The translations under genes were made by a program, and so were the position numbers. From the NCBI GenBank assembly GCA_038063815.1, contig JBBTUJ010000005.1:4875-68874 (forward strand): a stretch of 64,000 nt of DNA, given 5' to 3'. The notes beneath the pieces are model-generated. The model saw nothing but the letters and a program-made list of their open reading frames with translations. It did no database searches and was not told the DNA's origin. This DNA comes from Patescibacteria group bacterium (GTDB taxonomy: Bacteria; Patescibacteriota; Minisyncoccia; Phycocordibacterales; EsbW-18). This document shows positions 10,113 through 63,808 of the stretch, piece after piece (the stretch's first letter is position 1; each line of letters begins with the position of its first letter).

Positions 10113-10835
10113 CTAGGATTGCTTTTTCGGACGGGACAGAAGAACAAAAAACCTTGGCTCAAACACACGACTGTCATAGGGCACGACTTCCGACCCTGTG
10201 GGAGTGTCATAGATACCGAACCGACGACGCATCACGATCTCGCAAAGACGCACTGCACGTCGCACGAAATAATTCGTAAGCCAGCGAGAAACGAGTCGCT
10301 GGCCAAACATTTTCTCAACGATAAGATACGGAGAGAGTTCAGCGATAAGTTCGTCGTATCGATACTCGAGAACATGGAATTGATTGAGTGGGTGGATACT
10401 GAATGGGGATGTCACTTTTTTGTTCGGTGTCGAAATGATGACGAGCCCGTCCGGCGCGAGCCAGCGAGAGAGGTTCGCAAGATATGCGCGCCGCACCTCC
10501 TCTTCGAGATGTTCTATCGTTTCGAATGAGCAGATGATATCAAAGGATGCGTCGGGAAAAAGAGTATCACCCGCAGATGCTTCGATAAATTCGACACCGG
10601 CCTGCGCAAAATGTGTTTGCGCGTAGAGAATGGATTCGTGCGAAACGTCGACACCGGTATACGAAGTAGCCCCTGCGACAATGCACGTCGGGGCTCCGTA
10701 CCCTGTACCACATGCAATATCAAGGACCCGCTTTCCTTTGACAAACGCGGTCGCGAAAGCGTACCGTGCTTGGTGCTCTGCTTCCGTCCGTTCGGATGAT
10801 TCTCCGATAATAACTTGTTCCCCTGTCGCTTTCAT
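10113..10835 (-). CDS. class I SAM-dependent methyltransferase (Methyltransf_11/23-like)
   Basis: VLDIACGTGYG motif I, DIICSFETIEHL and LAPDGLVIIS. Confidence 0.75.
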   Translation of the reverse strand: MKATGEQVIIGESSERTEAEHQARYAFATAFVKGKRVLDIACGTGYGAPTCIVAGATSYTGVDVSHESILYAQTHFAQAGVEFIEASAGDTLFPDASFDIICSFETIEHLEEEVRRAYLANLSRWLAPDGLVIISTPNKKVTSPFSIHPLNQFHVLEYRYDELIAELSPYLIVEKMFGQRLVSRWLTNYFVRRAVRLCEIVMRRRFGIYDTPTGSEVVPYDSRVFEPRFFVLLSRPKKQS

Positions 10836-10842
10836 GTGTCCT

Positions 10843-11880
10843 CTACGATATCACACGCTCGATAACGCGCTTCAGGTCTTCCGCGATCTTCTCGGGAGTC
10901 CCGCGTGACATAAAAAGTTCGTATCCACCACCACCAATCCGCTTTGCAAGACCTGAGTCGTCGCGGAGAGAAAGTACCGCACGCGCAAGGTCATTCGAAT
11001 CTCCTGGAATACAGAGAAGAACGTTCTGCCCATCCTGTGCAATCTCTTCTATCGCCTCAGTACGTGCGGTAACAACAGGCTTCCGACATGCCCACGCCTC
11101 ATACACTTTGTTGGGAATAACGAGATGTATTTTGTGAGTCGTCCCGGCAATACCGATCGATACATCCGCTCGATTGATATATTCACGAAGATCTTCGTAC
11201 AGAACATCATCATGAAAAGATACCTCTGGATATTCCTTCTCATACATCCGCTTTATGCTTGTGCCAACAACTGAGATCTGTATCCCCTGTGCTGAAAGCA
11301 TCTTCCCCGCAGCAAGTACGGTAGGAACACCATGAAGCGGAATGTTCGTTCCGTGAAAGTGGACCGTGAAAGGGTGTGGCGACGAGGAATCATTTGCATC
11401 CGGATAAAAAACCGACGGATCGGATCCGACAAGAATGCGATGACTCCGTTCTGGGTCACACCCGAATTTGTTCACAAAAAAGTCGCGGTGGGCGAATGTG
11501 TCAAAAAGATATGCGTGCGCAAGGTGACATGAGAGAAGATCGAGGAGATAGTAGTATGCCGCGTGCAGACCTACACGTGAGTATTTCTGTCGGTCATCAA
11601 CAAGCGTCATGTGTAAAGAGAAAAACGGATCAAAAATAATCTTCTTTGACGATATAAGTCGCGCTAGTATGAGTGCCTGCTGTCCCGGAAACGCAACGAA
11701 CATGATGTCGTACCTGCCACGAATCTGAGCGTGCTTCCGAATGAGGTCTCTGTATTTTCCTACTCCCTTTTTGTTTGTTCTGCATTCGACAACTGTGTGC
11801 CCGCTTAACTCAAATGCACGCTTGAGGATGCGGTTCCTGGGGTAGGTGGGATCATAAATCCCAAAAAAACATATCTTCAT
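10843..11880 (-). CDS. GT-B fold glycosyltransferase (GT1/GT4-like)
   Basis: 345 aa with a GT-B pattern. It overlaps the upstream GT4 gene by 4 nt. Confidence 0.6.
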   Translation of the reverse strand: MKICFFGIYDPTYPRNRILKRAFELSGHTVVECRTNKKGVGKYRDLIRKHAQIRGRYDIMFVAFPGQQALILARLISSKKIIFDPFFSLHMTLVDDRQKYSRVGLHAAYYYLLDLLSCHLAHAYLFDTFAHRDFFVNKFGCDPERSHRILVGSDPSVFYPDANDSSSPHPFTVHFHGTNIPLHGVPTVLAAGKMLSAQGIQISVVGTSIKRMYEKEYPEVSFHDDVLYEDLREYINRADVSIGIAGTTHKIHLVIPNKVYEAWACRKPVVTARTEAIEEIAQDGQNVLLCIPGDSNDLARAVLSLRDDSGLAKRIGGGGYELFMSRGTPEKIAEDLKRVIERVIS

Positions 11881-12935
11881 ATATGCGCGTCGTTCAAAAT
11901 ACCAACCATCCGCTCTATGAGAGATTGGAGACGATGTTCCGATGCAATCTTTTGGACCAACACACGCAAGGATTGGAACTCTCCATCGCTACGTTGTGCC
12001 ATTTGTAGAAGTGCATTTGCAAGTGTTTGGGCGTCACCTTGAGGAAATGCGACGACACCGGGCCGACCGACGCTCACTGAAAGCGTTCCCTCATTACACG
12101 TCACGACAGGAAGACCTGCCGCCATCGCTTCAAGAGGAGCCTTATCAAGCGCGCCCGTCGTGCTAGCGCTCACAAACACGTGTGCCTTATGAAGATACGG
12201 GAGAATATCCTTTTGGGGGACAGGCCCAACAAATGTTATTTTCTCTGACAAACCGAGTTCTTTCACTCGATCGTGAAGTTTCTTTTCATATGCTACCTGG
12301 TCCGGCGTTCCGGGTCCGCCGATGATAGAAAGAATGATTGAAGTTCCACGCTCCGTAACAATACGGATTGCGTCGATGAGTGTCTCATATCCTTTTACCC
12401 GAGAGATCCTACCGAATGTTACTACGCGGAGAACATCGCGCGGGAGGATTTCGGTAGAAGGAATGAATCGTTCCAGATCGATGCCGTGGCCGACAATGTG
12501 CGTTTTGTTCGATTGAATACGAAAGCTCTCTGTGGTCGATGTAAAAATATCGTGAGCAAGAATGGTGGCGAGGCGAAGTGAGGCGCTGACCGATCCGTGG
12601 GTATACCAAAGACCGATACGTTTCTTGAGTGCGCGCCACACAACACCACCTAAAACCACATAGATTGGGTTCATGTGTACAAAAACCGCGTCATAGTTTT
12701 TTCTTTCCCGCCATATATATGCATAGAACCGACGCAGGTATTTGAAGTGCGAGGGGCCCTTTTCTTTTCCGAGAGAAAGGACATGAACATTCTTTGGAAG
12801 CGCGTGCACGCCTTCATACAAACAGATGACGACTACCGACTCGCACTTTTGTGCAAACTCTTCAATCCATCGGTGAAAAAATCCGAGATTGTCATCTGCG
12901 CTATCAACTTTTTGTGTAAGGATAAGAAGTTTCAT
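11877..12935 (-). CDS. glycosyltransferase family 4
   Basis: RISRVKGYETLIDA...LEAMAAGLPVV, with 4 nt overlaps to both neighbours. Confidence 0.8.
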   Translation of the reverse strand: MKLLILTQKVDSADDNLGFFHRWIEEFAQKCESVVVICLYEGVHALPKNVHVLSLGKEKGPSHFKYLRRFYAYIWRERKNYDAVFVHMNPIYVVLGGVVWRALKKRIGLWYTHGSVSASLRLATILAHDIFTSTTESFRIQSNKTHIVGHGIDLERFIPSTEILPRDVLRVVTFGRISRVKGYETLIDAIRIVTERGTSIILSIIGGPGTPDQVAYEKKLHDRVKELGLSEKITFVGPVPQKDILPYLHKAHVFVSASTTGALDKAPLEAMAAGLPVVTCNEGTLSVSVGRPGVVAFPQGDAQTLANALLQMAQRSDGEFQSLRVLVQKIASEHRLQSLIERMVGILNDAHI

Positions 12936-18386: not shown

Positions 18387-20372
18387 TTACTTCTTTTCCC
18401 GGTCAAACAACTTTTTCAAAACGTGTTCAGGAACTTCAGGAAGTGCTTGTTTCTGTTGAGAAAGATTTGGCGCAGGGGGCACGGGGGCACTCTGGGCAGG
18501 TTTCGGTGAAGGATTCTGGACTGGCGGAGGTGGCGGTGTTTGTTTTACTTCCTGCTTCGGTGGCTGGGATTGTTGTGGTTGTTGTTGTGGTTGGACTTGA
18601 GGAGCTGGTCGTGATGAAGGAGTTTGTTGCACGGGTTCTCGCGGAACAGGGGTTATACCCTCATCCGGGGCAACAGGTTGCTGAAGGACTGCCGCCAACG
18701 CGTCGCGTAAATCTTTCAACCGCTCTTCTGACGGTCCTTTTTCTTTCTTTTGGCGCGCACGCTCTTCTTCTTTAAGGCGCGAAAGAGAAACAGCTTGCCG
18801 AACCCGATCTTCACGATTAGAGAAACCTTTTTGTTTTCCTTCTTCTTGACGGGGTTCTCTTCCCTCCGGAGGTTTTACAGGGCTTCTTTGCTCACTGCGG
18901 GGAATTCCGGACTCCTCTTTTCTCTCCGGTGGCCTGCCGCCACGTTGTTCTCCTCGAAAACTACCTCCACCTCGTTGACCACCACGATCTCCCGAAGAAC
19001 TACCCTCCCGGCGAGGCGGCGGAGCAGAACGCGTCTCAGAGCGTCCGCCGCCTCCTTCTCTTTCCTCTCTACCAAACACCTTTTCGTGCCACGTAATGAT
19101 ATCTTCTTCAACGGGACGTCGTGCTCGGGCAAATTGCTCACGTGAACGAGCGATGGCGACATCGCGGTACGAAACAGCTGGTGACGCGATAGGTCCCAGT
19201 GTTCGCGCGGAAAAAGGAGCAGACGACATACCATCAATCATAAGTTTGAGGTATACCTGCGCAAACCCGAGATTCACGAGATCTTCTGCGGTGAAGAGCG
19301 GTGCGAATTCTTTTTCGAGATACTCGGCGTCCGTCGCACCAACACGGAATGTAATCATCGTTCCGACGTTGCCGAAGACGGCGGCACGCACTTCGTCAGA
19401 CATCTGCTCGATGTACTGATGCGCCATCGTGAGATTCAATTTATATTTTCGCGCCTCCGAGAGGATGTCCGCAAAGGACTCGTTCGCAAATGATTGGAAT
19501 TCATCGACGTAGAGATAAAAGTTCGGCAGTTTATTGAGTTCATCCTCACGCAAGTCGGCGCGTGACATCGCGGCAAGGTAAATCTTTGTGATGAGCATCG
19601 AGCCCAAGAGATTCGCGCTATCTTCACCCACCTGCCCTTTCGAAAGGTTAATGATGAGGATCTTGCGCTGATCCATGATCTCGCGAATGTTAAAAGACGA
19701 TTTCGACTGGCCGACGATATTCCGAATGACAGGATTCGCAGTGAATTGTCCAACTTTGTTCTGGATTGCAGGAGTCGCTTCGGCTGCGAATTTATCGGTA
19801 TATCGTGCAAACTCATCTTCCCAAAATGACTTCACACCAGGGTCAGTCACCGACGCGACCACAGCGGCGCGAAATTCCCTGTCAACGAGCATCCGGTTGA
19901 TTCCCAAAAGCGTTGCGCCTGGGTACTCGAGAAGCGCCAGAATCGTATTGTTCAAAATATATTCCATGCGGGCTGACCACGCATCAACCCAGATTTTCTT
20001 AAATGCAGACATGAGACCCGCCGCAACAAGGTGACGTTTGTCCGGACCAATATCTTCCATCACGTTGAATGAAACCGGATTTGCAAGATCAAACGGTGCA
20101 AAATACACGACATCATTGATACGATGCTCGGGAATGTAGTCAAGAAGAAGGTCAGCGGTCTTGCCGTGCGGATCAATGAAGGCGAATCCTTCGCCGTTCT
20201 GGATATCCTGCACCGCCATGTTCTCAAGCAGAGTTGACTTACCGGTTCCGGTCTTTCCGATGACGTAGACGTGACGCGTCCGGTCCTTGGCTTTAATGCC
20301 AAATTTGACGAGTTTATTCCGGTGGTCGGTCTCGCCGATATATGTGATTCTGTTTGGATCAAAAGAACTCAT
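18387..20372 (-). CDS. soluble VirD4/TraD/TrwB-like (type IV coupling protein-like) P-loop ATPase with RGG/PQ-rich C-terminal tail
   Basis: Walker A VIGKTGTGKSTLL, FIDPHGK, Walker B YLYVDEFQ and ARKYKLNLTMAHQYIEQ. No N-terminal TM helices. About 250 aa low-complexity tail. Paralog of 46202-48943. Confidence 0.6.
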   Translation of the reverse strand: MSSFDPNRITYIGETDHRNKLVKFGIKAKDRTRHVYVIGKTGTGKSTLLENMAVQDIQNGEGFAFIDPHGKTADLLLDYIPEHRINDVVYFAPFDLANPVSFNVMEDIGPDKRHLVAAGLMSAFKKIWVDAWSARMEYILNNTILALLEYPGATLLGINRMLVDREFRAAVVASVTDPGVKSFWEDEFARYTDKFAAEATPAIQNKVGQFTANPVIRNIVGQSKSSFNIREIMDQRKILIINLSKGQVGEDSANLLGSMLITKIYLAAMSRADLREDELNKLPNFYLYVDEFQSFANESFADILSEARKYKLNLTMAHQYIEQMSDEVRAAVFGNVGTMITFRVGATDAEYLEKEFAPLFTAEDLVNLGFAQVYLKLMIDGMSSAPFSARTLGPIASPAVSYRDVAIARSREQFARARRPVEEDIITWHEKVFGREEREGGGGRSETRSAPPPRREGSSSGDRGGQRGGGSFRGEQRGGRPPERKEESGIPRSEQRSPVKPPEGREPRQEEGKQKGFSNREDRVRQAVSLSRLKEEERARQKKEKGPSEERLKDLRDALAAVLQQPVAPDEGITPVPREPVQQTPSSRPAPQVQPQQQPQQSQPPKQEVKQTPPPPPVQNPSPKPAQSAPVPPAPNLSQQKQALPEVPEHVLKKLFDREKK

Positions 20373-26046: not shown

Positions 26047-26058
26047 CACTAAACTCTG

Positions 26059-26142
26059 TGCCGCGGGGGAGACTCGAACTCCCATTCCCTTACGAGAACT
26101 ACGACCTGAACGTAGCGCGTCTACCAATTTCGCCACCGCGGC
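26059..26142 (-). tRNA. tRNA-Leu (anticodon CAG), type II with long variable arm
   Basis: GCCGCGG-TG-GCG-AAATTGGTAGA-CGC-G-CTACG-TTCAGGT-CGTAG-(long var)-GGGAG-TTCGAGT-CTCCC-CGCGGC-A. CCA is not encoded. Confidence 0.85.
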
Positions 26143-26175
26143 AGTTTAGTGCTGGGTAAATCTACCAATTTTTAT

Positions 26176-26234
26176 CCCGTCACTAACGTTGGCATTCTAC
26201 GCGTGCTTTCGCACAATGCCAATGTTAGTGCGGG
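26176..26234. repeat. GC-rich palindromic hairpin element, homologous to the stem of the 16S V2 insertion
   Basis: CCCGTCACTAACGTTGGCATT...AATGCCAATGTTAGTGCGGG is a 20 bp stem with one bulge and one G.U pair. Compare 28512-28533 and 28625-28646. Confidence 0.6.
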
Positions 26235-26269
26235 ACCGCCACGCGCCCAAAACTGACCGAGATATAACT

Positions 26270-26345
26270 GGTGCGCGTGGTAGGACTCGAACCTACGGCC
26301 TCGTCATTATCAGTGACGTGCTCTAACCAGCTGAGCTACACGCGC
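26270..26345 (-). tRNA. tRNA-Ile (anticodon GAT), CCA encoded
   Basis: GCGCGTG-TA-GCTC-AGCTGGTTA-GAGC-A-CGTCA-CTGATAA-TGACG-AGGCC-GTAGG-TTCGAGT-CCTAC-CACGCGC-ACCA. Confidence 0.9.
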
Positions 26346-26398
26346 AAGTGAGGATGACACATGATGTCTTTCGTGCGAGAGCGGAGTCATCGAGGTAA

Positions 26399-26432
26399 GA
26401 GCAAAAAGGAAAGCTCGCTTTCATTTTTGCTC
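26399..26432. terminator. A/T-flanked palindromic hairpin (bidirectional terminator-like) between the small ORF and tRNA-Ile
   Basis: GAGCAAAAAGGAAAGCTCGCTTTCATTTTTGCTC, with 9 bp outer arms plus an inner GAAAG/CTTTC stem. Confidence 0.4.
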
Positions 26433-26593
26433 GACACCGAGATGATGTGAGCTCGAGCCCTCTACACCATGTGGTCCGAATGCCGCGCTTGTATGTATTC
26501 ATACACGCGAAAACGTATATATGCATACCCACGCAAGCAAGAGGCACTATACCAAAAAACCTATGTGTACTCAATGAAATGTGAAACCGCCAC

Positions 26594-26818
26594 CTACAAC
26601 TGGTGTAGGCGGCGGTGCTGCTCGTTCCCCCAGCGCAGAATCGCGCTGAGGAGAACGACGGCCAGGATGTAGATGAGCGCCGTGGCGCACATCACGAGCG
26701 CCTGACCAGCGCTCATCGTCGGCGTCGCCCCATGGAGCGGCGCCGACAAGTTTCCCAGAGCGTGGATGAACACCGACACTCCGGGGACTGAAAATCTGAT
26801 GACAAAACTGCTGATCAT
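26594..26818 (-). CDS. small hydrophobic protein (75 aa) with its own promoter, SD and terminators
   Basis: MISSFVIRFSVPGVSVFIHALGNLSAPLHGATPTMSAGQALVMCATALIYILAVVLLSAILRWGNEQHRRLHQL. Preceded by TTGACT-N16-TATAAT, then AGGAGGTG 6 nt before the ATG. About 62% GC. The ORF track's 115 aa version extends upstream through the promoter. Confidence 0.5.
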   Translation of the reverse strand: MISSFVIRFSVPGVSVFIHALGNLSAPLHGATPTMSAGQALVMCATALIYILAVVLLSAILRWGNEQHRRLHQL

Positions 26819-26837
26819 TGGCCACCTCCTGAGAAGC

Positions 26838-26865
26838 ATTATACCAGCACGTTTGTAAAAGTCAA
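26838..26865 (-). promoter_or_regulatory. sigma70-like promoter TTGACT-N16-TATAAT driving the small ORF
   Basis: Minus-strand sense reads TTGACTTTTACAAACGTGCTGGTATAATGC, followed by SD AGGAGGTG (26823-26830) and the ATG at 26818. Confidence 0.55.
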
Positions 26866-26881
26866 TACCCTGTGGGTAAGC

Positions 26882-26910
26882 AAAAACGGCCTTAGTTAGG
26901 GCCGTTTTTG
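26882..26910. terminator. bidirectional intrinsic terminator (A5-ACGGCC-loop-GGCCGT-T5)
   Basis: AAAAACGGCCTTAGTTAGGGCCGTTTTTG. It lies between the 16S 3' flank and the small-ORF promoter. Confidence 0.55.
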
Positions 26911-27257
26911 CGCTTTGCCATCCTCGCGGATGACCATACATGTGTCTTTTCTTTTGTTCCGTTCATACCGGTCTTTCCCGGCTTGTCCGATTGCTTTAAG
27001 GATATTCAATCATAATCCATCACGTACTCAATTGAGGTACATGATATCGACCGCCTTGATCAAGTATTCAAAAACTGAACACTCGACGATTTGTCATTGG
27101 ACAAAATCCACGAGCAGCTTCCGCTACCCGTGCCTTGTTACGCCTTAACCCTAGTCACCGAACTTGCCTTAGAACATGAGAACCATGTGCTTCGGGCATT
27201 CCCGGCTCCTTTGACTTGGCGGGCGGTGAGTACAAGGCTCGAGAACGTATTCACCGT

Positions 27258-27289
<32 letters not shown>

Positions 27290-27452
27290 ACTTCATGAGG
27301 TCGAGTTGCAGACCTCAATCCGAACTGAGGATGGCTTTCTAAGGATTGGCTCGGGATTACTCCGTCGCGACCTGTTGTACCACCCATTGTATCACGTGTG
27401 TAGCCCGAGGCATCAGAGGGACATGCTGACTTGGCGTCATCCCCGCCTTCCT

Positions 27453-27594
27453 CCCAGCACGAAGCGTACGATGTACGCTTCAAGTTAAAAGTTTGTAAAG
27501 TTATAAAGTTTATAAAGTATTTTTTGTATTCACTTTACGAACTTGATGAACTTTTTACTTTCTACTTGAAGCGCTTCACGCGCTTTGTGCTGGG
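27453..27594. repeat. 16S V7 (h40-loop) insertion containing a copy of the AT-rich dispersed repeat, flanked by GC palindromes
   Basis: CCCAGCAC...GTGCTGGG closes the stem. Inside lie GAAGCGTACGATGTACGCTTC and GAAGCGCTTC hairpins plus the AAGTTATAAAGTTTATAAAGT...GATGAACTTTTTACTTT repeat. Confidence 0.6.
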
Positions 27595-28511
27595 CGGTCT
27601 CGTCTGACACTTATAACAGACGATAGGGGTTGCGTTCGTTACCCCACTTAAGGGAACAGCTCAAGCCACGAACTGACGACAGCCATGCATCACCTGTCCA
27701 GCCGCCCGAAGGCTCGTAAAGTTTCCTCTACGATTCGTCTGGATGTCTAGCCTCGGTGAGGTTCTTCGTTTAGCATCGAATTAAACCACATGATCCACCG
27801 CTTGTGCGAGCCCCCGTCTATTCCTTTGAGTTTTAACCTTGCGGTCGTACTACCCAGGCGGATCACTTAACGCGTTAGCTTCGCCTCTCAGAGGGTCGAT
27901 ACTCCGAAAAGCTAGTGATCATCGTTTAGGGCCAGGACTACTGGGGTATCTAATCCCATTCGCTCCCCTGGCTTTCGTGTTTCAGCGTCAGATATATGCT
28001 AGTGTACTGCCTTCGCTTTTGGCGTTCCCCACGATATCAACGGATTTCACCCCTACACCGTGAGTTCCGTACACCCCTCATACTCTCGTAGTTGTACCGT
28101 TTCCCATGCGGATTTCTGGTTAGGCCAGAAGATTTGACACAGGACTAATACAACCGCCTACACACCCTTTACGCCCAATAATTCCGGATAACGCTCGGGG
28201 CTCTCGTATTACCGCTGCTGCTGGCACGAGATTAGCAGCCCCTTATTCATCGGGTACCGTCAAAATTTCTTCCCCGATAAAAGATCTTTACGTCCCGAAG
28301 GACTTCATCAATCACGCGGCGTCGCTCCGTCACACTTTCGTGCATTGCGGAAGGTTCTTGACTGCAGCCACCCGTAGGTGTCTGGACAGTGTCTCAGTTC
28401 CAGTGGTGGGGGTCAGGCTCTCACCTCCCCTACGCGTCATAGCCTTGGTAAGCCATTACCTTACCAACTAGCTGATACGAGGCAGGCCGTTCTAGAAGCG
28501 ATAAATCTTTA

Positions 28512-28646
28512 CCCGCACACTAACTTTGGCATTGTCTTCAGTACGCCGAGATCATTGTCACATTATCTGTGATAACTATTCGGGAATAACGATAATAAAC
28601 CTTCCACACAACTGCCTTCGGCGTAATGCCAAAGTTAGTGTGCGGG
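28512..28646. repeat. 16S V2 insertion forming a 22 bp perfect stem (CCCGCACACTAACTTTGGCATT / AATGCCAAAGTTAGTGTGCGGG), with a partial third copy at 28664-28690
   Basis: A perfect 22 bp inverted repeat encloses 91 nt, with an inner ACGCCGA/TCGGCGT extension. It is absent from E. coli-type V2. Confidence 0.65.
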
Positions 28647-29042
28647 TTTACTCCGATTTGAAGACCATTACAAAGTTAGTGAGCGGGACCATCAGGTATT
28701 AGCCCATCTTTCGATGAGTTATTCCTGACTTCTAGGTACGTTCCCACCCGTTACTACCCCGTTTGCCGGTTGCCCTTGCGGGCCCCCTTGACTTGCATGC
28801 CTTAACCACGCCGCCAGCGTTCATCCTGAGCTAGGATCAAACTCTACATAAGAATCACAAATTGCTTTGTGATTTTTCTGAACGGAACAAAAGAAACAAC
28901 ACATGTATATCGTTCTTTGTTCTTTTTTTCCAGCACGTAGCTCATGCGTGCCGGACTTAGATACTTTACTTGTTTAGGAATAGACGAGTACTCCCAACAC
29001 TTATTCGAGTGCTGGAAAATCTTGTACTCTCTACTTATTTTA

Positions 29043-34742: not shown

Positions 34743-34814
34743 TATACGGCGGCCCGTAGCTCAATGGTAGAGCGGTCGACTTATATTCGATTGGTTGCAG
34801 GTTCGAGTCCTGCC
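34743..34814 (+). tRNA. tRNA with anticodon TAT (tRNA-Ile(UAU)-like)
   Basis: CGGCCCG-TA-GCTC-AATGGTA-GAGC-G-GTCGA-CTTATAT-TCGAT-TGGTT-GCAGG-TTCGAGT-CCTGC-CGGGCCG-A. CCA is not encoded. Confidence 0.65.
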
Positions 34815-34822
34815 GGGCCGAC

Positions 34823-41706: not shown

Positions 41707-41720
41707 CCTAAAACAGCAAC

Positions 41721-41801
41721 AGTTTATCAAGTCATAATGTTCATCAAGTTTGTAAAGTAAATTCAAATACTTTATAACTTTACGAACCTTATGAACTTTT
41801 G
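41721..41801. repeat. AT-rich dispersed palindromic repeat copy, upstream of the tmRNA 5' end
   Basis: AGTTTATCAAGTCATAATGTTCATCAAGTTTGTAAAGTAAAT...ACTTTATAACTTTACGAACCTTATGAACTTTTG. Confidence 0.6.
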
Positions 41802-41830
41802 TTTGCTACCTTAGGGCAAACGACTGGTCC

Positions 41831-42277
41831 TTATTCTCTTTTCAATGAACGCTCGATGTCGCGGTCGCTCTCTCGCTTCTTGAGGTCCTCGCGCTTATCG
41901 TACTTTTTCTTTCCGCGCATGATTCCCAAAGAAACCTTCACGAACCGTCCTTTATTATACACCGATAATGGCACAATTGTCAATCCCTTCTGCCCTTCCG
42001 TTTCGGCGATATGGAGCATCTCTTTTTTGTTGAGGAGGAGTTTCCGCGCGCGATCCGGTTCGTAGTCAATTGGGGTGTTTTTCGGCTGATACGGCGCGAT
42101 TGACATCCCAACGAGAAATACCTCGCCGCCACGTGCTACCGCATGCGCGCCCTCGAGTGACCCTTTGCCGGTCCGGAGCGCCTTCACCTCATATCCCGCA
42201 AGAACGATACCCGCCTCAAGCGTTTCAAGGATGGTATAGTCGCGTCGTGCTTTTCTGTTTTCGATGTATGAGGCCAT
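41831..42277 (-). CDS. smpB: SsrA-binding protein SmpB
   Basis: RKARRDYTILETLEAGIVLAGYEVKALR...GKGLTIVPLSVYNKGRFVKVSLG. Confidence 0.9.
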   Translation of the reverse strand: MASYIENRKARRDYTILETLEAGIVLAGYEVKALRTGKGSLEGAHAVARGGEVFLVGMSIAPYQPKNTPIDYEPDRARKLLLNKKEMLHIAETEGQKGLTIVPLSVYNKGRFVKVSLGIMRGKKKYDKREDLKKRESDRDIERSLKRE

Positions 42278-42305: not shown

Positions 42306-42938
42306 TTATCCTCGTACGTCCGCTGCTGGCAAGTCGCTTTCGTCTAAGCGATAGCTGTACGTCATTTTGTTCTCAAGTTTGTCTTTTTTCGCGAGTTCGA
42401 TAACGCGCGCAACAAGATTCTTCGGGTTGGTATCAAAAATTACTTTATTGTGCGAGCGGTTGCTTCGGTCAAGAATCGTGCGAATCGTTTCGTCCATAAC
42501 CCACTCGCCCTCAAGAACACCGATTGGCTTGTTGTCTTCAAATGCGATTGTAAATTCATGAATAGTACCAATGCGTCCACATCCGAAGATGACCGCGTCT
42601 CCCGAGCGCGTCAAAATCAAATCGCGTCCTGAGTATCCGAATCCGGTATAGACAATCAGGTCCATGTAATCAACCGGGAGACGATACGCTTCGATGTGTT
42701 CGCGTTCAGATGCCGCTGGAGAGATACCGATCGATTGTCCACCCGCCTCAACAGCACCGATTGCCGCCCACAGAGGAAATCCTGTTGTCGCACCCGTCAC
42801 GATTGTGGCACCTTGTCGTGCGATTTCACGCCCCGTTTCTTTCGCGACCTCAAATGCGCGCGGACCACACTTCGATGTTTCGGCAGCGCCTGAAACACAG
42901 ATCTTTATCTGGCGATGTTTATGCGGATCGTATGTCAT
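42306..42938 (-). CDS. Rossmann-fold SLOG/LOG-like (TIGR00725-type) protein
   Basis: ICVSGAAETS...GATIVTGATTGFPLWAAIGAVEAGGQSIGISPA pattern. Confidence 0.45.
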   Translation of the reverse strand: MTYDPHKHRQIKICVSGAAETSKCGPRAFEVAKETGREIARQGATIVTGATTGFPLWAAIGAVEAGGQSIGISPAASEREHIEAYRLPVDYMDLIVYTGFGYSGRDLILTRSGDAVIFGCGRIGTIHEFTIAFEDNKPIGVLEGEWVMDETIRTILDRSNRSHNKVIFDTNPKNLVARVIELAKKDKLENKMTYSYRLDESDLPAADVRG

Positions 42939-42963
42939 TTACAGCAAGTATGACGCGATTACG

Positions 42964-43038
42964 CAAGTTTATCAAGTTGAAAGTTATAACGTTACAAGTA
43001 ACTTGATGAACTTTATAACACGGCGAACCTGATGAACT
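42964..43038. repeat. AT-rich dispersed palindromic repeat copy between the LOG-like and MBL-fold genes
   Basis: CAAGTTTATCAAGTTGAAAGTTATAACGTTACAAGTAACTTGATGAACTTTATAACACGGCGAACCTGATGAACT. Confidence 0.6.
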
Positions 43039-44401
43039 ATTCGAGGTCGAACGTCTGCCCGAGTTCGGGATATACGGCATCTACTCCGAGATAATCACGC
43101 AAACGTTGCACAAAAAATTGTGACGCGCGCGGCTCTCCCATTGTGACAAATACCTTTTTGAGCGTGTGGCCTGTCGCCGTAACGAACGCCAAGAGCCCGT
43201 CAACATCGCGATGTCCAGAGAATCCGTGTATCTTTTCTATCTGTGCTCGAACTTGAATTTTTTCTCTTCCAATCGTGACGCTCTTTGCCCCATCCTCCAG
43301 CTGTCGTCCCAAGGACCCCGGTGACTGGTACCCGACAATCAGAAGCGCATTTTTCGGATCACTCAAATAGTGTTTCTCATGACTCACCACCCGTCCTCCG
43401 TGAGACATTCCTGATCCCGCGATGATGATCTTCGGCCCGGGAACCTTTGCAAGCACGTCCGACTTTTCTTTTTCCGAGATAAGGGTCAATTCTGGGAACG
43501 AGAACAGTTTTTCTCCCCGTGCGATTGTTTCTTGTGCTGTCTTATTGAAAATGTCAGATGAGTGTTCATAGATGTGCGTTGCTTTGATCGCCAAGGGCGA
43601 GTCGAGATATACAGGTATCCGCGGGATACGTCCCGCCTTGAGAAGCGCGTGGAGTTCATACAGCACAAGCTGTGAACGTTCAACAGAAAATGCCGGAATG
43701 AGAAGCGTTCCTTTACGCGCCGCGACTTCATTGATAACACTCTCGAGACGCGCGGTCCGATCTTCTCCCGTTTCGTGCCGCCTATCACCATAGACGCTCT
43801 CAATAACGAGGTATGACGCGCTATCGACGATGTCCGTATCGCGAAGAAGGAGTGATGGCGAATTCCCCAAATCACCACTGAAAACGATTGTCCCTGCGGT
43901 GGGATGCGTCGCGAGAACAAGGGCCGACCCAAGGACGTGTCCTGCGTCTTTGAGCGTTATCGAGAAATCACCTATTGAGAACGGCTCATAGTACGGCACC
44001 CCTTTCCAGAGAGGGAACGCCGCTGCAACGTCGGCCGGCTCGTATGGTGGCGTGGTTCCGCATGCAGCCGCCTCGCCAGCGAGAAGATGTGCGGCGTCAA
44101 CGAGAAGAATCTCTGCGAGTTCTTTTGTCTGAGGCGTCGAATAGATCACTCCCTTGAAACCATCCCTCACGAGCTTTGGAATACGGCCGATGTGGTCGAT
44201 ATGTGTGTGCGTGACAATAAGCGCGTCGATATCTTTAGGTTCGTACGGAAAATCCTCGTAGTTTTTCTCATCACACACACGTCTTCCCTGGAAAAGTCCG
44301 CAGTCAACGAGAATCTTCTTCCCGCCGCCCTCCAAAAGAAAGTTTGCGCCCGTCACCGAGCCAACGCCGCCGTAAAATGTAAGTTTGGGAGAAGTGCTCA
44401 T
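43037..44401 (-). CDS. MBL-fold metallo-hydrolase with beta-CASP domain (RNase J / CPSF-like ribonuclease)
   Basis: HTHIDHIG motif and the overall beta-lactamase plus beta-CASP pattern. Likely start MSTSPKLTFYGG at 44401. Confidence 0.7.
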   Translation of the reverse strand: MSTSPKLTFYGGVGSVTGANFLLEGGGKKILVDCGLFQGRRVCDEKNYEDFPYEPKDIDALIVTHTHIDHIGRIPKLVRDGFKGVIYSTPQTKELAEILLVDAAHLLAGEAAACGTTPPYEPADVAAAFPLWKGVPYYEPFSIGDFSITLKDAGHVLGSALVLATHPTAGTIVFSGDLGNSPSLLLRDTDIVDSASYLVIESVYGDRRHETGEDRTARLESVINEVAARKGTLLIPAFSVERSQLVLYELHALLKAGRIPRIPVYLDSPLAIKATHIYEHSSDIFNKTAQETIARGEKLFSFPELTLISEKEKSDVLAKVPGPKIIIAGSGMSHGGRVVSHEKHYLSDPKNALLIVGYQSPGSLGRQLEDGAKSVTIGREKIQVRAQIEKIHGFSGHRDVDGLLAFVTATGHTLKKVFVTMGEPRASQFFVQRLRDYLGVDAVYPELGQTFDLE

Positions 44402-44820
44402 ACAAGAGGTGAAGTTTTTCTGTGTGTAAAGATACCTCTCATCAGATACGCCGCGCACCATGCCCCTGTCATGTCCATTGCCAGATCAACCACTGTATCT
44501 GCGACAATATTTTTCTGCCCCGCAAACATCCCTGTTGCATACTCGAATATCTCCCACCCGATACCGGTTATCAATACCGCAAGTACAATTTGAAAAAAGT
44601 ATGGAAACTTTCCAAAAAATGTCTCGAACCGAAAATATCCCCACGCGGCACATCCGCCAAGCGCAAAACCACTAAGAAAATGCAACGGGGCGAAACACCA
44701 GGGACAGGTCAGGTCTAAAGAATACTTGAGCATTACTTCCTGCACTATAAAAACAAGCCCGACAACAAGAAAAAGGGCAAGGAGCGTGGTTCCAAATCGC
44801 ATCGGCATGATGGTAGACAT
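44398..44820 (-). CDS. VanZ-like family membrane protein
   Basis: Four TM helices with a VanZ-like pattern. The start is uncertain and was taken at MSTIMPMRFG. Confidence 0.45.
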   Translation of the reverse strand: MSTIMPMRFGTTLLALFLVVGLVFIVQEVMLKYSLDLTCPWCFAPLHFLSGFALGGCAAWGYFRFETFFGKFPYFFQIVLAVLITGIGWEIFEYATGMFAGQKNIVADTVVDLAMDMTGAWCAAYLMRGIFTHRKTSPLV

Positions 44821-46201: not shown

Positions 46202-48943
46202 TTAGAGATGGTATTTTTCCCCAATTTCTCGCTCCACCTCAGCCCGAGGACGTCCATGGCGCTCAAATGATTCCCGGGCGAGTATTTCCGCGCGAGCACG
46301 ATCGAACTTCGGCGGTGATACCGTCTCAACATTAAAGGGACGTTCCGGGCGACCGTTTGAAAGAAGGCGCAAAAAGGCATTCCTGTTGTCGACGTTCATG
46401 AGATCAGATGCCGTGAACACCGGTGTGAATTGTTTCTCAAGGTACTCCGCGTCATCACTTCCGACACGGAACGCTGCAATTGAGCCCACGTTCCCAAAGA
46501 CCGCATCACGTATTTTTTCATCAAGTTGTTTGATGAACTGGTGAGCGACCGTCAGAGACAGGCGGTATTTCCGTGCCTCAGAGAGAATCGTTGCGATTGA
46601 ATCCGTCGTGACATTCTGAAACTCGTCGATGTAGAGGAAGAAGTCAGGCCGTTCTCCAGCTTCCGCATCAACACGCGAGAGTGATGCCATCAAAATCTTC
46701 CCGACAATGATGAGACCCAAAAGATTCGCATTGATGTCACCCAAGCGGCCCTTCGAGAGATTCACCAGAAGAATCTTCCGTTCGTCCATGATACGACGGA
46801 AGTCGAATGCGGACGTTTTTTGAACAACGATCGGACGCATGATGTCATTCGCGAGGAAGACATCGAATTTCGATGTTATGTAGGGCACAATGTTCGCGAG
46901 AGATGCTTCTCCTCCCGCTTTTTCCGCGACATCACGCCAGAATTGGACAATAATCGGGTTCTTGCAGCGAGAGAGCTTGAGCTCGCGATATGTTTTGTCA
47001 GACATCACACGCGACACGTCAAACAATGTGTTTCCTGTTTCTGGGTCCTCGATGACAAGCATCGTCGCATTCCGGAAATACTGCTCAAACATTGGGCCCA
47101 TCGATTCGGGAACTTTTCCGTAGAGTTTTTGGAAGATAGAAAAGAGCTCGTTCACCACGAACGTCTTCTGCTCCGGATGTGCTGGGTCATACTCGAGCAT
47201 ATTGAGCCCCATCGGACGGTCAACCTGCGAAGGGTCAAAATAAATGACATCATTTCGCCTCTCATCCGGCACGGCCGAGAGGATATCAAAAACGTCGTTC
47301 CCGTGCGGATCAATCATGCAAACCCCGTCGCCATTCGCGATATCTTGGACAATCATGTTCTTGAGTAACGTCGTCTTTCCTGTTCCCGTCTGACCAATCA
47401 CGTACAAGTGCCGCATGCGATCCTCCGGCGTAAAGAATATCTGTGTCTCTGCATTCCTGTATCGATTGATACCAAGCAAAACCCCCTCATGCGGAAGATC
47501 CACAGGGGCGGGCGCGCTTCCGGCCTTTGAACGCTTAAGCTCTCGGGACGATTCGACTCCCGTTGCAGGAAAGTGAAATACCGTTGCAAGTTCCCTGATG
47601 TTGAGAGGGAGTACGAGATCACTCTTGAAGTATCGATAGGTGAAGTCGCGAATGAACTCCTTAAGACCTCGCGAGGAGACACGTACAAATTTGAATTTAT
47701 TTCCCTTTCCCTCTTCAAACTGATTAAATGTTGCCTCCAGATCAGAAAGGATTACTTCACTTCGTGATTCACCACCCGAGGAAGCAAGGAGGCGGATATT
47801 CGTTTCAAGAACGGGGTGTGAAATTTTTTGTTTAATCGATTCAAGTGCAACGTCGTCAATGACTTTCTGCTCTTTTTCTTTTTCTTTCTCGTCCTTCTTT
47901 TTCGACACAAAAAACTCTTTGAACCCTTTGGCGATGTCTTTCACGACCGACTCGTCCGCAAGCGCCTTTTTGAGTTTCTCGCCTTTTTGGAGACGTGTGA
48001 TGACGCGTTTGTATTTCTCCGTATATGAATCGCCTGCGGGTTTGACGACGATTTGAAGCGCCGCCCCTTCTCCTACCCGTGAGAGTTTTGCAAAAGCGGA
48101 GAGTGTGATATTCAAAGGATCATAATCGAGTGTCTCAAATGTCTTCAGGGGAAAAGCGGCGGGGCGAAGAAGCGTTGCGAAGGAAGCCGCAACAGAACCG
48201 TCAGGAACAAAGACGTTGTAGTCGTTCTTTGTTTCAACAAGACGTGCCTGAGGAAAAATCGAGAGAAGTTGTTTTTCAAAGAGTTCTCGTTTTTCGACCG
48301 GTACCGCACAAAAAAGCGTTGCGTGCTCGTGACTCGCTTCTACGGCAAGTTCAAGCGTAAAGTATGCAGACCTCGAGGCCTGTGCCGCAACAGAAGAGAG
48401 TCCGGCGTAGAGTTGTTCCATTGACGAGAGAAGTTCTTTAAGCGGCCTTCGGTCTTCTTTCTCGCGCGCTCCAATAGGAAGAGAGACCTCGAAAAGCGTC
48501 ATGTGAAGCGCTTTCCACATCTCGGACTTTTGCGAAACACCATCTGCCGCGTAGCCCTCTTTCAGATATTCAGCAAGAAATCGGTGAAAATCGTCCGCAA
48601 GGTGTGGGTTGTCGAGTTTTGAGAGAACAGAGAGCGCGTTCCTGACACCTCTCTCGCGCATAATCGAGAGAAGTTCGCTTATCTGTTCATCGTGTTCCTC
48701 GGGCTGAAGATCAAGTACAATCGCGTCAATTTCGGGTTTAAGCATCGCATGACCTTTTTCAAGGACATGTTCCGGGTGGTGTTTTGTATATGCTGCAACA
48801 AGATTCTCGGCTGCCGCTTCGGGCCCGCTCGCTTCCGCAGATGTCATTCCTTTCTCAAGTTCCCGTAGACGCTCTCGCAAAAAAGTTGCCTCCTCGTCAG
48901 GTGTTTTGAATTTTGCTTCAGGCGTAACGCTGAATCGTTCCAT
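46202..48943 (-). CDS. VirD4/TraD/TrwB-like P-loop ATPase with about 480 aa unique N-terminal domain (paralog of 18387-20372)
   Basis: Walker A YVIGQTGTGKTTLL, MIDPHGN, Walker B FLYIDEFQ and ARKYRLSLTVAHQFIKQ. No TM segments. Confidence 0.6.
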   Translation of the reverse strand: MERFSVTPEAKFKTPDEEATFLRERLRELEKGMTSAEASGPEAAAENLVAAYTKHHPEHVLEKGHAMLKPEIDAIVLDLQPEEHDEQISELLSIMRERGVRNALSVLSKLDNPHLADDFHRFLAEYLKEGYAADGVSQKSEMWKALHMTLFEVSLPIGAREKEDRRPLKELLSSMEQLYAGLSSVAAQASRSAYFTLELAVEASHEHATLFCAVPVEKRELFEKQLLSIFPQARLVETKNDYNVFVPDGSVAASFATLLRPAAFPLKTFETLDYDPLNITLSAFAKLSRVGEGAALQIVVKPAGDSYTEKYKRVITRLQKGEKLKKALADESVVKDIAKGFKEFFVSKKKDEKEKEKEQKVIDDVALESIKQKISHPVLETNIRLLASSGGESRSEVILSDLEATFNQFEEGKGNKFKFVRVSSRGLKEFIRDFTYRYFKSDLVLPLNIRELATVFHFPATGVESSRELKRSKAGSAPAPVDLPHEGVLLGINRYRNAETQIFFTPEDRMRHLYVIGQTGTGKTTLLKNMIVQDIANGDGVCMIDPHGNDVFDILSAVPDERRNDVIYFDPSQVDRPMGLNMLEYDPAHPEQKTFVVNELFSIFQKLYGKVPESMGPMFEQYFRNATMLVIEDPETGNTLFDVSRVMSDKTYRELKLSRCKNPIIVQFWRDVAEKAGGEASLANIVPYITSKFDVFLANDIMRPIVVQKTSAFDFRRIMDERKILLVNLSKGRLGDINANLLGLIIVGKILMASLSRVDAEAGERPDFFLYIDEFQNVTTDSIATILSEARKYRLSLTVAHQFIKQLDEKIRDAVFGNVGSIAAFRVGSDDAEYLEKQFTPVFTASDLMNVDNRNAFLRLLSNGRPERPFNVETVSPPKFDRARAEILARESFERHGRPRAEVEREIGEKYHL

Positions 48944-59632: not shown

Positions 59633-59650
59633 GTGGAGTGGAAAGTTGCA

Positions 59651-59737
59651 GGTTATAAGGTTTATAAAGTAAATGCAAGGTTTTTTTCTTTATGAACTTT
59701 ATAACTTGATAAACTTTATGAACTTTTATTTTAGTGT
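59651..59737. repeat. AT-rich dispersed palindromic repeat (one of 6 copies), rpmC-rplP spacer
   Basis: GGTTATAAGGTTTATAAAGT...TTTATGAACTTTATAACTTGATAAACTTTATGAACTTTT. The other copies are at 27481-27566, 41721-41801, 42964-43038, 61281-61386 and 63716-63808. Confidence 0.65.
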
Positions 59738-61277: not shown

Positions 61278-61280
61278 GGT

Positions 61281-61386
61281 AGTTATAAAGTTCGAAAGTT
61301 ATAAAGTTCATCAAGTTCGTATAGGAATTTGAGATTGAAGAGATTTTGACTTTATAACTTTATAAACCTGATAAACTTTTTACTTT
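61281..61386. repeat. AT-rich dispersed palindromic repeat copy, rpsS-rplV spacer
   Basis: AGTTATAAAGTTCGAAAGTTATAAAGTTCATCAAGTT...GACTTTATAACTTTATAAACCTGATAAACTTTTTACTTTTT. Confidence 0.65.
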
Positions 61387-61736
61387 TTGGCTGCCGGTGC
61401 TGCTGCAGTATCCGCTGCGGCCTTCGCCCCCTTCGCTGCTGCGATCTCTGCGTCCTTCTTCGCTTGGTCGAGTGCCTTTTGCATCTGTCCTCCGTGTCGG
61501 CGGAATGTCTTTGTTGGTGAAAATTCACCAAGACGGTGTCCAACCATTTCTTCGGTTACAAACACATCGAGAAAACTCTTCCCGTTGTGTACACCAAATG
61601 TATATCCGACCATTTCAGGCGCAATGATACTCGCGCGAGCCCATGTTTTGATGGTCGCACCACCGGCTTTTCCGGCAGCAACCTTCTTCATGAGTTTCGC
61701 GTTCAAATATGGTCCTTTCTTGAGGGATCGGGTCAT
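61380..61736 (-). CDS. rpsS: 30S ribosomal protein S19 with Ala/Lys-rich C-terminal tail
   Basis: [19 protein letters not shown]...[18 protein letters not shown]. The start is taken at M17 of the track ORF. The stop codon lies inside an AT-rich repeat copy. Confidence 0.85.
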
Positions 61737-61895
61737 GGATGTTGAACAAAAAGAGCCCCAGTGGCTCGCAAAGTATCGTAGCAAAAAATAAGGAAATGTA
61801 AACCCCTACCACAACATCCTGACTAAACACTCGGTGTCCGGTCAAACTGACCGGACACCGAGTGTTGCACGTACCGATGTAATGTCTGTAAAACC

Positions 61896-61924
61896 TTGTG
61901 GAGGTGTGCAAAACGAGGTATAGT
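61896..61924 (+). promoter_or_regulatory. plus-strand promoter-like TTGTGG-N17-TATAGT inside the rplB-rpsS spacer
   Basis: TTGTGGAGGTGTGCAAAACGAGGTATAGT. It would drive the antisense 66 aa minigene. Confidence 0.4.
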
Positions 61925-62006
61925 TTTTGTTGGGCACAGTTCTTTGTTTTTTGTAGTTTGGAATCACCTTTTCCGCATGGAGCGGAAGGGTTCGCAGGAG
62001 AAGCAC

Positions 62007-62207
62007 ATGAAGGATGCGGAGCGGAACGAAACCGACCAGCCATGCCTTTGCGAAAAGAGTCACGCCGTCATGCAGCGGCATGGCAAACCGACCGAGGTTC
62101 GAATTCTGAGCCTCAGCCACCGCAGAGGAACTGCCTGCGTCCGACCGCTCAAGGGAGCGTCGGGGACACTGGTCGTCTCAATCGCTGCCCTCGTCGCTCT
62201 CACGTAA
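62007..62207 (+). CDS. hypothetical small protein (66 aa) encoded antisense within the rplB-rpsS spacer
   Basis: MKDAERNETDQPCLCEKSHAVMQRHGKPTEVRILSLSHRRGTACVRPLKGASGTLVVSIAALVALT. SD AGGAGA lies 5 nt upstream. About 60% GC. A promoter sits upstream and an intrinsic terminator at 62241-62270 downstream. Confidence 0.4.
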   Translation: MKDAERNETDQPCLCEKSHAVMQRHGKPTEVRILSLSHRRGTACVRPLKGASGTLVVSIAALVALT

Positions 62208-62240
62208 CACCCCCCCTCGCACTACCCCCCACCCCCCGAA

Positions 62241-62270
62241 GGCGCCGCAAGTAGTACGCGGCGCCTTTTC
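62241..62270 (+). terminator. plus-strand intrinsic terminator (GGCGCCGC-loop-GCGGCGCC-TTTTCTC)
   Basis: 8 bp GC stem, 9 nt loop and a T-tract, 34 nt after the stop of the 66 aa ORF. Confidence 0.5.
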
Positions 62271-62275
62271 TCATT

Positions 62276-62309
62276 CACAAAACCACCCCCGCCTTTCGGC
62301 GGGGGTGGT
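62276..62309 (-). terminator. minus-strand intrinsic terminator directly after rplB
   Basis: Minus RNA reads ACCACCCCCGCC-GAAA-GGCGGGGGUGGU followed by UUUUGUG, 16 nt after the L2 stop. Confidence 0.55.
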
Positions 62310-62325
62310 CTCTTTCAATTTATTT

Positions 62326-63708: not shown

Positions 63709-63715
63709 ATCAGTG

Positions 63716-63808
63716 AGTTATAAAGTTGAAGGTTATAAGGTTTATCAAGTTAGAAATAGATTGCGTATGAACTTTATGAACTTGACGGACCTGATGAACT
63801 TTTTACTT
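63716..63808. repeat. AT-rich dispersed palindromic repeat copy, rplD-rplW spacer
   Basis: GAGTTATAAAGTTGAAGGTTATAAGGTTTATCAAGTT...ATGAACTTTATGAACTTGACGGACCTGATGAACTTTTTACTTTTT. Confidence 0.65.

Follow-up and report, generated by a model that had tools for sequence, protein, structure and literature searches.

The DNA analysed here is a 64,000-nt stretch of a Patescibacteria genome (contig JBBTUJ010000005.1; hereafter the window), and it carries a 16S rRNA gene in which the loop of helix 40 (h40) is extended by an insertion of 126 nt. The AT-rich core of this insertion is one of six copies of a palindromic repeat family, the other five of which (copies B–F) are localised to intergenic spacers of the same window (Table 1). 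We consider it probable that the insert is a short rRNA insertion of the intervening sequence (IVS) type, free of any open reading frame (ORF), and that its core is a palindromic repeat resembling a miniature transposable element with inverted repeats (MITE).

The 16S gene is complete, with 1757 nt compared with the 1533 positions of the bacterial small-subunit model in Rfam, and the surplus is made up of two insertions. The second of these falls in the h40 hairpin loop, at about model position 1158, where the gene has 130 nt and the model has 3 according to the structure line of RF00177. The original prediction of 126 extra nucleotides in this loop was borne out: they lie between CCCAGCAC and GTGCTGGG on the plus strand and are enclosed by the stem pair CCCAGCAC/GUGCUGGG. 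The GC palindromes that it placed on either side of an AT-rich core, GAAGCGTACGATGTACGCTTC and GAAGCGCTTC, are also present, as is the core itself, which contains 20% GC. When the insert and stem were folded in the RNA sense, they formed a single rod of ~60 bp that extends h40, with a GC-rich base and an AU-rich distal half. The minimum free energy (MFE) of this rod is −61.3 kcal/mol (z −8.56), a value equalled by 0 of 200 shuffled sequences. GC hairpins equivalent to the rod base are present in relatives (UUUGCGC-ACAA-GCGCAAA and similar). The 126-nt insert contains no ORF of relevant size and hence encodes no homing endonuclease, and no intron family reached the gathering score anywhere in the window in an Rfam search that does detect introns in two of the comparison loci (L147 and L151). 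With neither a covariance-model match nor a relevant ORF, we rejected a group I or group II intron as the identity of the insert.

Table 1. Positions in the window of the 16S rRNA gene, the parts of its helix-40 insertion, and the six repeat copies.
Feature	Position	Strand	Details
16S rRNA gene	27096-28852	minus	Rfam RF00177, 1362.9 bits, model positions 1-1533
Helix-40 stem, RNA 3' strand	27453-27460	minus	plus strand reads CCCAGCAC; structure line and inverted repeat
Helix-40 stem, RNA 5' strand	27587-27594	minus	plus strand reads GTGCTGGG; structure line and inverted repeat
Helix-40 loop insertion, 126 nt	27461-27586	minus	inside stem CCCAGCAC / GTGCTGGG
GC palindrome GAAGCGTACGATGTACGCTTC = GAAGCGTAC-GAT-GTACGCTTC	27461-27481	minus	rod base, RNA 3' side; inverted repeat of 9 nt, 100% complementary
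GC-rich rod base, RNA 5' side, AAAGCGCGUGAAGCGCUUCAA	27565-27586	minus	contains palindrome GAAGCGCTTC at 27568-27577
Copy A (AT-rich core)	27481-27563	not assigned	in the 16S h40 insert; profile of copies B–F, E=6.8e-9
Copy B	41720-41807	plus	between smpB stop (41831) and tmRNA 5' end (41706); nhmmer, Pfam
Copy C	42962-43047	plus	between beta-CASP RNase gene (43037-44461) and SLOG/LOG-family gene (42306-42938); nhmmer, Pfam
Copy D	59635-59733	plus	fills the spacer between rplP (L16, 59731-60153) and rpmC (L29, 59438-59632)
Copy E	61278-61389	plus	fills the spacer between rpsS (S19, 61380-61736) and rplV (L22, 60891-61277)
Copy F	63715-63811	plus	between rplD (L4, stop 63774-63776) and rplW (L23, 63244-63708)

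The members of the family are imperfect palindromes of 83–112 bp, in which each arm is an array of 8–9-nt AAGTT or AACTT units, one type per arm, with irregular spacing between units (7, 9, 8, and 9 nt). Within the 64 kb, just these six places show AAGTT/ARGTT runs that are followed by AACTT/AACYT runs. When the insert was compared with the window by BLAST, clustered matches appeared at the five places other than its own, including exact matches of 18–19 nt between the 16S copy and copies E and F. A profile built from copies B–F alone matched the 16S copy at 31.3 bits and returned nothing besides it at E<2 across the 64 kb, and the best of 3000 shuffles of the 16S core reached 4.5 bits against the same profile. 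Leave-one-out scores for copies A to F were 31, 42, 30, 43, 37, and 50 bits, respectively, and the pairwise local identities were 67–77% for nearly all pairs, those with copy A included; the C–E pair, a short alignment of 26 nt, was higher. Because its scores and identities are like those of the others, copy A is an ordinary member of the family, and its resemblance to the other copies exceeds what AT-richness provides. The claim that the core is the same element found five more times in spacers thus held. The intergenic copies are without the GC base of the rod, and the core of copy D contains 24% GC.

The six copies all fall within transcribed parts of mostly translation-related loci, and the intergenic ones separate co-transcribed genes. 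The genes that flank the copies are on the minus strand. These genes were identified with Pfam and from the gene calls of the same organism in an independent assembly (identical L14; ENA ERZ1292625, Hainich groundwater well H41, 0.1 um fraction). Relative to the genes, the five intergenic copies all have the same orientation, which has a chance probability of 1 in 16, and three of them reach or extend over the stop codon of the gene upstream. Copy C overlaps the stop end of the beta-CASP RNase gene by ~10 nt, the S19 stop codon TAA falls within the end of copy E, AAAAAGTAAAAAG, and one arm of copy F encodes the last ~9 codons of L4 (63774-63811). L4 of the window ends in EEKVKSSSGPSSS, and because this end differs from those in relatives (PKTK, AKTQ, and IAKA before the stop), copy F provides the terminal residues of the protein together with its stop codon.

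We compared the S10 operon of the window with those of five relatives (L125, L127, L129, L171, and L172; S3 identity 61–80%), two of which were reached through S3 homologues on ~600-kb contigs that were sought as the S10 operon of L147 and come from other genomes. The closest S3 proteins, at 79–80% identity, are labelled Parcubacteria/Paceibacteria. The S19/L22 spacer measures 11, 3, 2, 29, and 14 nt in the relatives and 102 nt in the window, all of it element; the L16/L29 spacer measures 39, 63, 4, 14, and 45 nt against 98 nt; and the L4/L23 spacer measures 20, 10, 8, 6, and 7 nt against 65 nt, with the L4 frame running a further ~9 codons into copy F. In all genomes compared, S19 terminates in KK and L22 begins with M(K/R)AYLKNYRQ. 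Since both protein ends are conserved, copy E is inserted cleanly between the stop codon of one gene and the start codon of the next. The repeat profile found no match in the ribosomal-protein loci of the five relatives. The three ribosomal-protein junctions are therefore element-free in these genomes, which indicates that the family spread in the lineage of the window, and these empty orthologous junctions are the strongest evidence for such a spread.

Helix 40 is a recurrent site of insertion in Patescibacteria. A search of species-representative genomes with the 20-mer located just 3' of h40 gave 120 loci, mostly from Patescibacteria with some from Chloroflexota, and the distance across h39–h40 could be measured in 110 of them. 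This distance was 57–59 nt in 77/110 genes, which lack an insert, and 77–225 nt in the remaining 33/110, which have one, compared with 185 nt in the window; h40 rods occur in about 30% of the sampled Patescibacteria 16S genes. The nearest 16S relatives, L026 and L023 (89–90% identity), have h40 rods, with lengths of 165–167 nt, and L023 comes from the same well. A metagenome scan for the h40 stem of the window gave a further set of 28 loci, whose 16S is 77–89% identical to that of the window and whose h40 content ranges from 50 to 242 nt. The same rod design was found in unrelated lineages, with a GC-rich base, arms composed of inverted tandem 7–9-nt units, and often a small conserved apex, and the units are specific to the lineage (GGGTAGA, GATTTAA, GGAGTAA, GGTATAA, GAAACTC, GTGAAAA, and others). 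The rod was the MFE form in 23 of 28 h40 inserts. Several of the stem-sharing loci hold cores of AAAGTT/AAAGTC units, and the profile of the intergenic copies matched the h40 cores of L162 (E=9e-8) and L151 (E=3e-6), as well as those of L143 and L147. It gave no match to the h40 cores of the nearest relatives L023, L026, and L164. BLAST of the relatives' h40 cores against their own 8-kb loci revealed no dispersed copies; in the window the copy nearest to the 16S gene is itself 14 kb away.

Modules of this kind are also found at sites other than h40. In L147 (FLOH01000029.1, 16S at 10527-12188) the same ~130-nt module is present in both h6 and h40; the two have a mean column identity of 90% over 166 columns, flanks included, an identical core of ~85 nt, and similar closing stems. 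L097 also has modules in h6 and h40, and their units differ. The module of L118 lies directly upstream of the 16S 5' end, in the 16S leader, a periodic hairpin in L092 lies 43 nt past the 16S 3' end, and one in L007 follows the tRNA downstream of 16S. The apparent sharing of units between the L092 trailer hairpin and the h40 rod of the same locus was dropped, as its eight shared 7-mers equal the background maximum. An element 20-mer gave 11 matches in viral contigs, but all of them fall at the same orthologous position within one family of AT-rich phages, show neither a hairpin nor a profile match, and were attributed to chance; the 16S h40 stem had no match in viral contigs. Separately, a group I intron is present elsewhere in the L147 locus. 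A hairpin with 7-nt periodic arms was also observed in h6 of L031 (Chloroflexota MAG JAYEMR010000039, 3273-3361), and the unit-array design is thus not confined to Patescibacteria.

These comparisons qualify two parts of the original prediction. It had suggested element mobility, and this is supported as far as spread of the family is concerned, by the clean insertions at three junctions and by the h6/h40 module of L147; the simple form of the idea, an intergenic repeat that jumps into an otherwise normal rRNA gene, was not supported. It had also named as its weak point a homologous expansion segment in all relatives, with the likeness to the intergenic repeats reduced to AT-rich low complexity. 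The h40 site is indeed expanded in relatives, but the similarity of the core to the intergenic repeats goes far beyond low complexity, and the observation stands despite these expansions. Because rods occupy h40 in relatives and AAAGTT cores occur there in distant lineages, the element may have moved into h40, replaced the core of a rod already in place, or moved out of h40.

The assignment of the insert to the IVS type follows its extra sequence at a conserved helix apex, its paired ends, and its sporadic presence among related rRNA genes. Similarly, the family has the MITE-like properties of six dispersed inverted-repeat copies of 83–112 bp and of presence or absence at orthologous junctions. 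As in expansion segments, short motifs repeat with a period of 7–9 nt along one arm and are matched by their complements along the opposite arm, both in the window and across many lineages. We rejected repetitive extragenic palindromic (REP) sequences or bacterial interspersed mosaic elements (BIMEs) with their REP-associated tyrosine transposase (RAYT), as these are GC-rich palindromes of 20–40 nt whereas the copies here are 83–112 bp long, AT-rich (at least A and D), and built as unit arrays, and no Y1 transposase is encoded in the window.

On the reading that we favour, h40 in this clade would already have held a rod-forming insertion, short and without an ORF. The insert would be transcribed with the 16S, its rod extending h40 with a GC base followed by an AU-rich distal half, and this distal half belongs to a repeat family that multiplied in the lineage, some time ago, into the stop–start spacers of translation-related operons. 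Copying would have taken place at the DNA level in a non-autonomous manner, as for a MITE or another small palindromic repeat, with the enzyme presumably encoded elsewhere in the genome. In the structure of the ribosome, the tip of h40 lies on the small-subunit head and faces the solvent. The copy in h40 might then be tolerated either as a solvent-exposed tip or through its removal by a double-strand-specific RNase; in the latter case the precursor would be cut as it is for IVSs excised by RNase III, and the 16S would be left in two pieces. Removal after transcription was one of the two outcomes offered by the original prediction, and we lean slightly towards excision of the rod from the precursor rRNA, based on its long double-stranded stem and on the absence from transcripts reported for insertions of the Candidate Phyla Radiation (CPR) (Brown 2015, as cited in PMC9297842). 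Excision of IVSs by RNase III is documented (PMC4990558), and the short "uncharacterized ISs" without intron or ORF that are often held by CPR 16S genes have been likened to such sequences (PMC11270868).

Several observations weigh against this interpretation. A Pfam search of ~50 ORFs in the window, which is 64 kb of the genome, revealed neither a transposase or RAYT-like gene nor a gene for RNase III, and the copy number and distribution of the family apply to this window. The AT-rich ends of the copies overlap stop codons, and no unambiguous direct repeat was seen there. The identities of 67–77% indicate that the spread is old, with no current mobility evident. The folding preferences of the copies are a further difficulty. 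Of the 28 distinct h40 inserts with a length of 100 nt or more, 23 fold better in the sense than in the antisense orientation, and the sense strand is where G-U pairs are concentrated; selection on the transcript therefore shapes h40 rods in general. The whole h40 insert of the window is one of the 4/28 that favour the antisense strand, and five of the six cores, the 16S one included, fold better on the plus strand, antisense to every host transcript. Such a fold is unexpected for a rod under selection at the rRNA level or for an RNase III substrate. The sense-RNA z values of the intergenic spacers are likewise weak (B −3.7, C −1.3, D −2.1, E −2.2, and F −0.7), and no compensatory base changes were found among the six copies. 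Finally, AAAGTT-type h40 cores occur in lineages whose 16S is 77–83% identical to that of the window, and the rRNA rod could consequently be the source of the family.

This last observation underlies an alternative to which we assign a clearly lower but still appreciable likelihood: the h40 rod would be ancestral and would have grown in place by compensatory slippage, and the intergenic copies would descend from it through recombination or through an RNA or DNA intermediate of the excised rod. The rods of the nearest relatives fit this scenario, as do the AAAGTC-unit cores found beside the AAAGTT type in the distant lineages, the lack of a GC base in the intergenic copies, and the restriction of these copies to the lineage of the window. 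Lineages with the same apex and base also differ in their arms, which are made of internally homogeneous 7-nt units, a pattern that Hancock and Dover 1990 (as cited in PMC1888808) ascribed to compensatory slippage. However, the 16S copy has no basal position within the family, every pair being about equally distant whether or not it includes this copy. The 16S core also shares the antisense-favouring fold of the intergenic copies, whereas most h40 rods favour the sense strand, and the cores of the three nearest relatives are not matched by the profile.

We regard it as unlikely that each copy is instead a selected RNA processing or stability signal, such as an RNase III site, in the highly expressed pre-16S rRNA, pre-tmRNA leader, and S10-operon mRNA, and not a selfish element. 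The transcribed, translation-related setting of all six copies and the common gene-relative orientation of the intergenic five are in line with such a role, as are the periodic hairpins that other Patescibacteria have in the leaders and trailers of rRNA and behind a tRNA. The smpB gene contains a perfect sigma-70 consensus (TTGACA, 18 nt, TATAAT; 12/12; 41954-41983, minus), which is situated ~250 nt upstream of the 5' end of tmRNA, and a promoter at this position would put copy B in the pre-tmRNA leader. The sense folds of copies D, E, and F are nevertheless weak and are surpassed by the antisense folds, compensatory changes are missing, the five relatives manage without the element at the same junctions, and a single orientation in five copies would arise by chance at the frequency given above.

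It is very improbable that the copies act on DNA as promoters, terminators, or protein-binding arrays, with the 16S copy incidental. The units do include TATAA-like and TTGAT-like strings, and one weak promoter-like match (9/12) starts in copy C, but no sigma-70-like promoter or intrinsic terminator was found in copies A, B, D, E, and F, and we rejected both classes of site on this basis. Overall, promoter-like sites were at or below the shuffled expectation and terminator-like sites in the ribosomal-protein region numbered 14 against 7.1 (sd 2.9), totals not clearly above shuffles; moreover, the spacing of the units is irregular, and a DNA signal would be purposeless within a 16S helix. A chance likeness between AT-rich low-complexity sequences, or an assembly chimera with a foreign 16S, is hardly credible: the core is 20% GC with short units, and the independent ENA assembly has a contig break at the rRNA region, but the leave-one-out E=7e-9, shuffles of at most 4.5 bits, and exact matches to E and F argue against chance, a foreign 16S would not bear the genome's own repeat family, and in ~1.2 Mb of Patescibacteria DNA examined the family was confined to same-organism loci, this 16S, and weaker matches in a few other Patescibacteria rRNA regions.

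Returning to the reading of an IVS-type insertion with a MITE-like core, we tentatively consider a broader version of it, in which the short ORF-less insertions in Patescibacteria rRNA would be undescribed small palindromic mobile modules that copy among h6, h40, and the leaders and trailers of rRNA, and in this lineage also into the stop–start spacers of ribosomal-protein operons and the tmRNA leader. With similar reservation, the parts of such a module would be the GC base, the arms of inverted tandem units, and the small apex. The antisense-favouring fold shared by five of the six copies, which is not statistically strong, hints at a strand-specific hairpin of single-stranded DNA as the mobile form. 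Such a hairpin would resemble the ends of IS200/IS605 elements, REP elements, or attC sites.

Like the IVSs excised by RNase III from helix 25/45 of 23S rRNA (Salmonella, Leptospira, and Coxiella) or from 16S rRNA (Campylobacter and Helicobacter), the insert replaces a helix tip, has a long end-paired stem, is sporadic in occurrence, and would be either tolerated or selfish. To our knowledge, h40 of 16S is not among the classical IVS sites. The insert, known here from its sequence, differs from a classical IVS in that its stem consists of inverted tandem 7–9-nt units and its core is shared with intergenic repeats of its own genome. An IVS is described for Coxiella in PMC4990558, and an IVS identity was suggested for short CPR insertions by Tsurumaki et al. 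2024 (PMC11270868). With bacterial MITEs and small palindromic repeats (Correia/CREE, ERIC, RUP, and Nezha; PMC3184786), the family has in common a size of ~100 bp, the lack of an ORF, inverted repeats, copies in operon spacers, and presence or absence at a given site. Unlike for these elements, no terminal inverted repeats with target duplication could be defined for it, its arms are unit arrays, one copy resides in an rRNA helix, and no partner transposase was identified among the ~50 window ORFs. The tail of L4 shows one of its copies running into the end of a coding sequence. Copies of Rickettsia palindromic elements (RPEs) can do the same. The insert further resembles eukaryotic expansion segments, at least as these are summarised from Hancock and Dover 1990 in PMC1888808, in being a rod at a helix tip with motif arms and their complements, a base and apex more conserved than the arms, and G-U enrichment on the sense strand; in contrast to them, it has a bacterial host, such inserts measure 100–240 nt, the module has been duplicated between helices in L147, and the sequence is shared with mRNA spacers. 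Group I and II introns with homing endonucleases interrupt rRNA genes in the same host group, but the insert has no intron-model match and no ORF in its 126 nt, and its site is outside those listed in PMC11270868.

Interrupted CPR rRNA genes, IVSs, and MITE-like repeats are each already known separately. Insertions are present in nearly half of CPR 16S genes, and those that are introns with homing endonucleases have been explained, whereas the short ORF-less ones are called "uncharacterized" (PMC11270868). In the literature searched we found no precedent for MITEs or palindromic elements in rRNA genes or for IVSs in helix 40, nor an account of an h40 hot spot, of unit-array rods, or of module duplication between helices, and above all no rRNA insertion whose core also recurs as an intergenic repeat in the same genome. 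The locus ties a short uncharacterized CPR rRNA insertion to a repeat family that also occurs outside rRNA, and the comparison set adds a recurrent site at the h40 tip, a common rod design, and a module that can be duplicated between helices of one 16S. If the proposed reading is correct, such insertions would originate as palindromic repeats that have spread and that are either cut out or, at helix tips exposed to solvent, tolerated, a fate that is testable. The lengthening of V7 by 100–200 nt affects 16S amplicon surveys and the 16S-based classification of these groundwater bacteria.

Other features of the 16S gene were also observed. The first insertion (155 nt, near model position 188, ~28519-28680) folds as a branched rod (−75.6 kcal/mol, z −7.5), and its stem CCCGCACACUAACUUUGGCAUU resembles, at the marginal level of 17/18 nt and E=0.036, that of a long hairpin between the tRNA-Ile and tRNA-Leu genes downstream of the 16S (26176-26236). 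The 515F primer site (28208-28227) reads GUGCCAGCAGCAGCGGUAA compared with the consensus ..GCCGCGG.., a mismatch that would hinder detection of the organism by standard amplicons. The 3' tail of the gene (27096-27115, minus) differs from the model, with GGAUUUUGUCCAAU in place of GGAUCACCUCCUUU; the 60 nt downstream of the 16S 3' end contain no CCUCC, and GGAGG is absent from the gene starts that adjoin repeat copies. Loss of the anti-Shine-Dalgarno motif has already been reported for a Parcubacteria subgroup (PMC9297842). The 16S is followed by a small ORF without a Pfam match, tRNA-Ile(GAT), tRNA-Leu(CAG), and alr (26058-28852). No 23S or 5S gene was found anywhere in the 64-kb window, and the rRNA genes are therefore unlinked.

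Outside the rRNA region, the L2 (rplB)-S19 (rpsS) gap spans ~590 nt in the window (61737-62325) and ~500–770 nt in L125, L127, L129, and L172, though not in L171. In those relatives the gap contains small ORFs without a Pfam match on either strand, which is unusual for a tightly packed operon. The window also encodes a tRNA-Ile with the anticodon TAT (UAU) at 34750-34822; in most bacteria AUA is read by a lysidine-modified CAU tRNA. Two large ATPases resembling TrwB/VirD4 coupling proteins, along with a 990-aa protein that has no Pfam match, are encoded at 18387-20372, 46202-48943, and 49246-52218. One of the ATPases and the 990-aa protein directly follow the spc operon, adk, and map, and a similar large protein follows map in L171 and L172.

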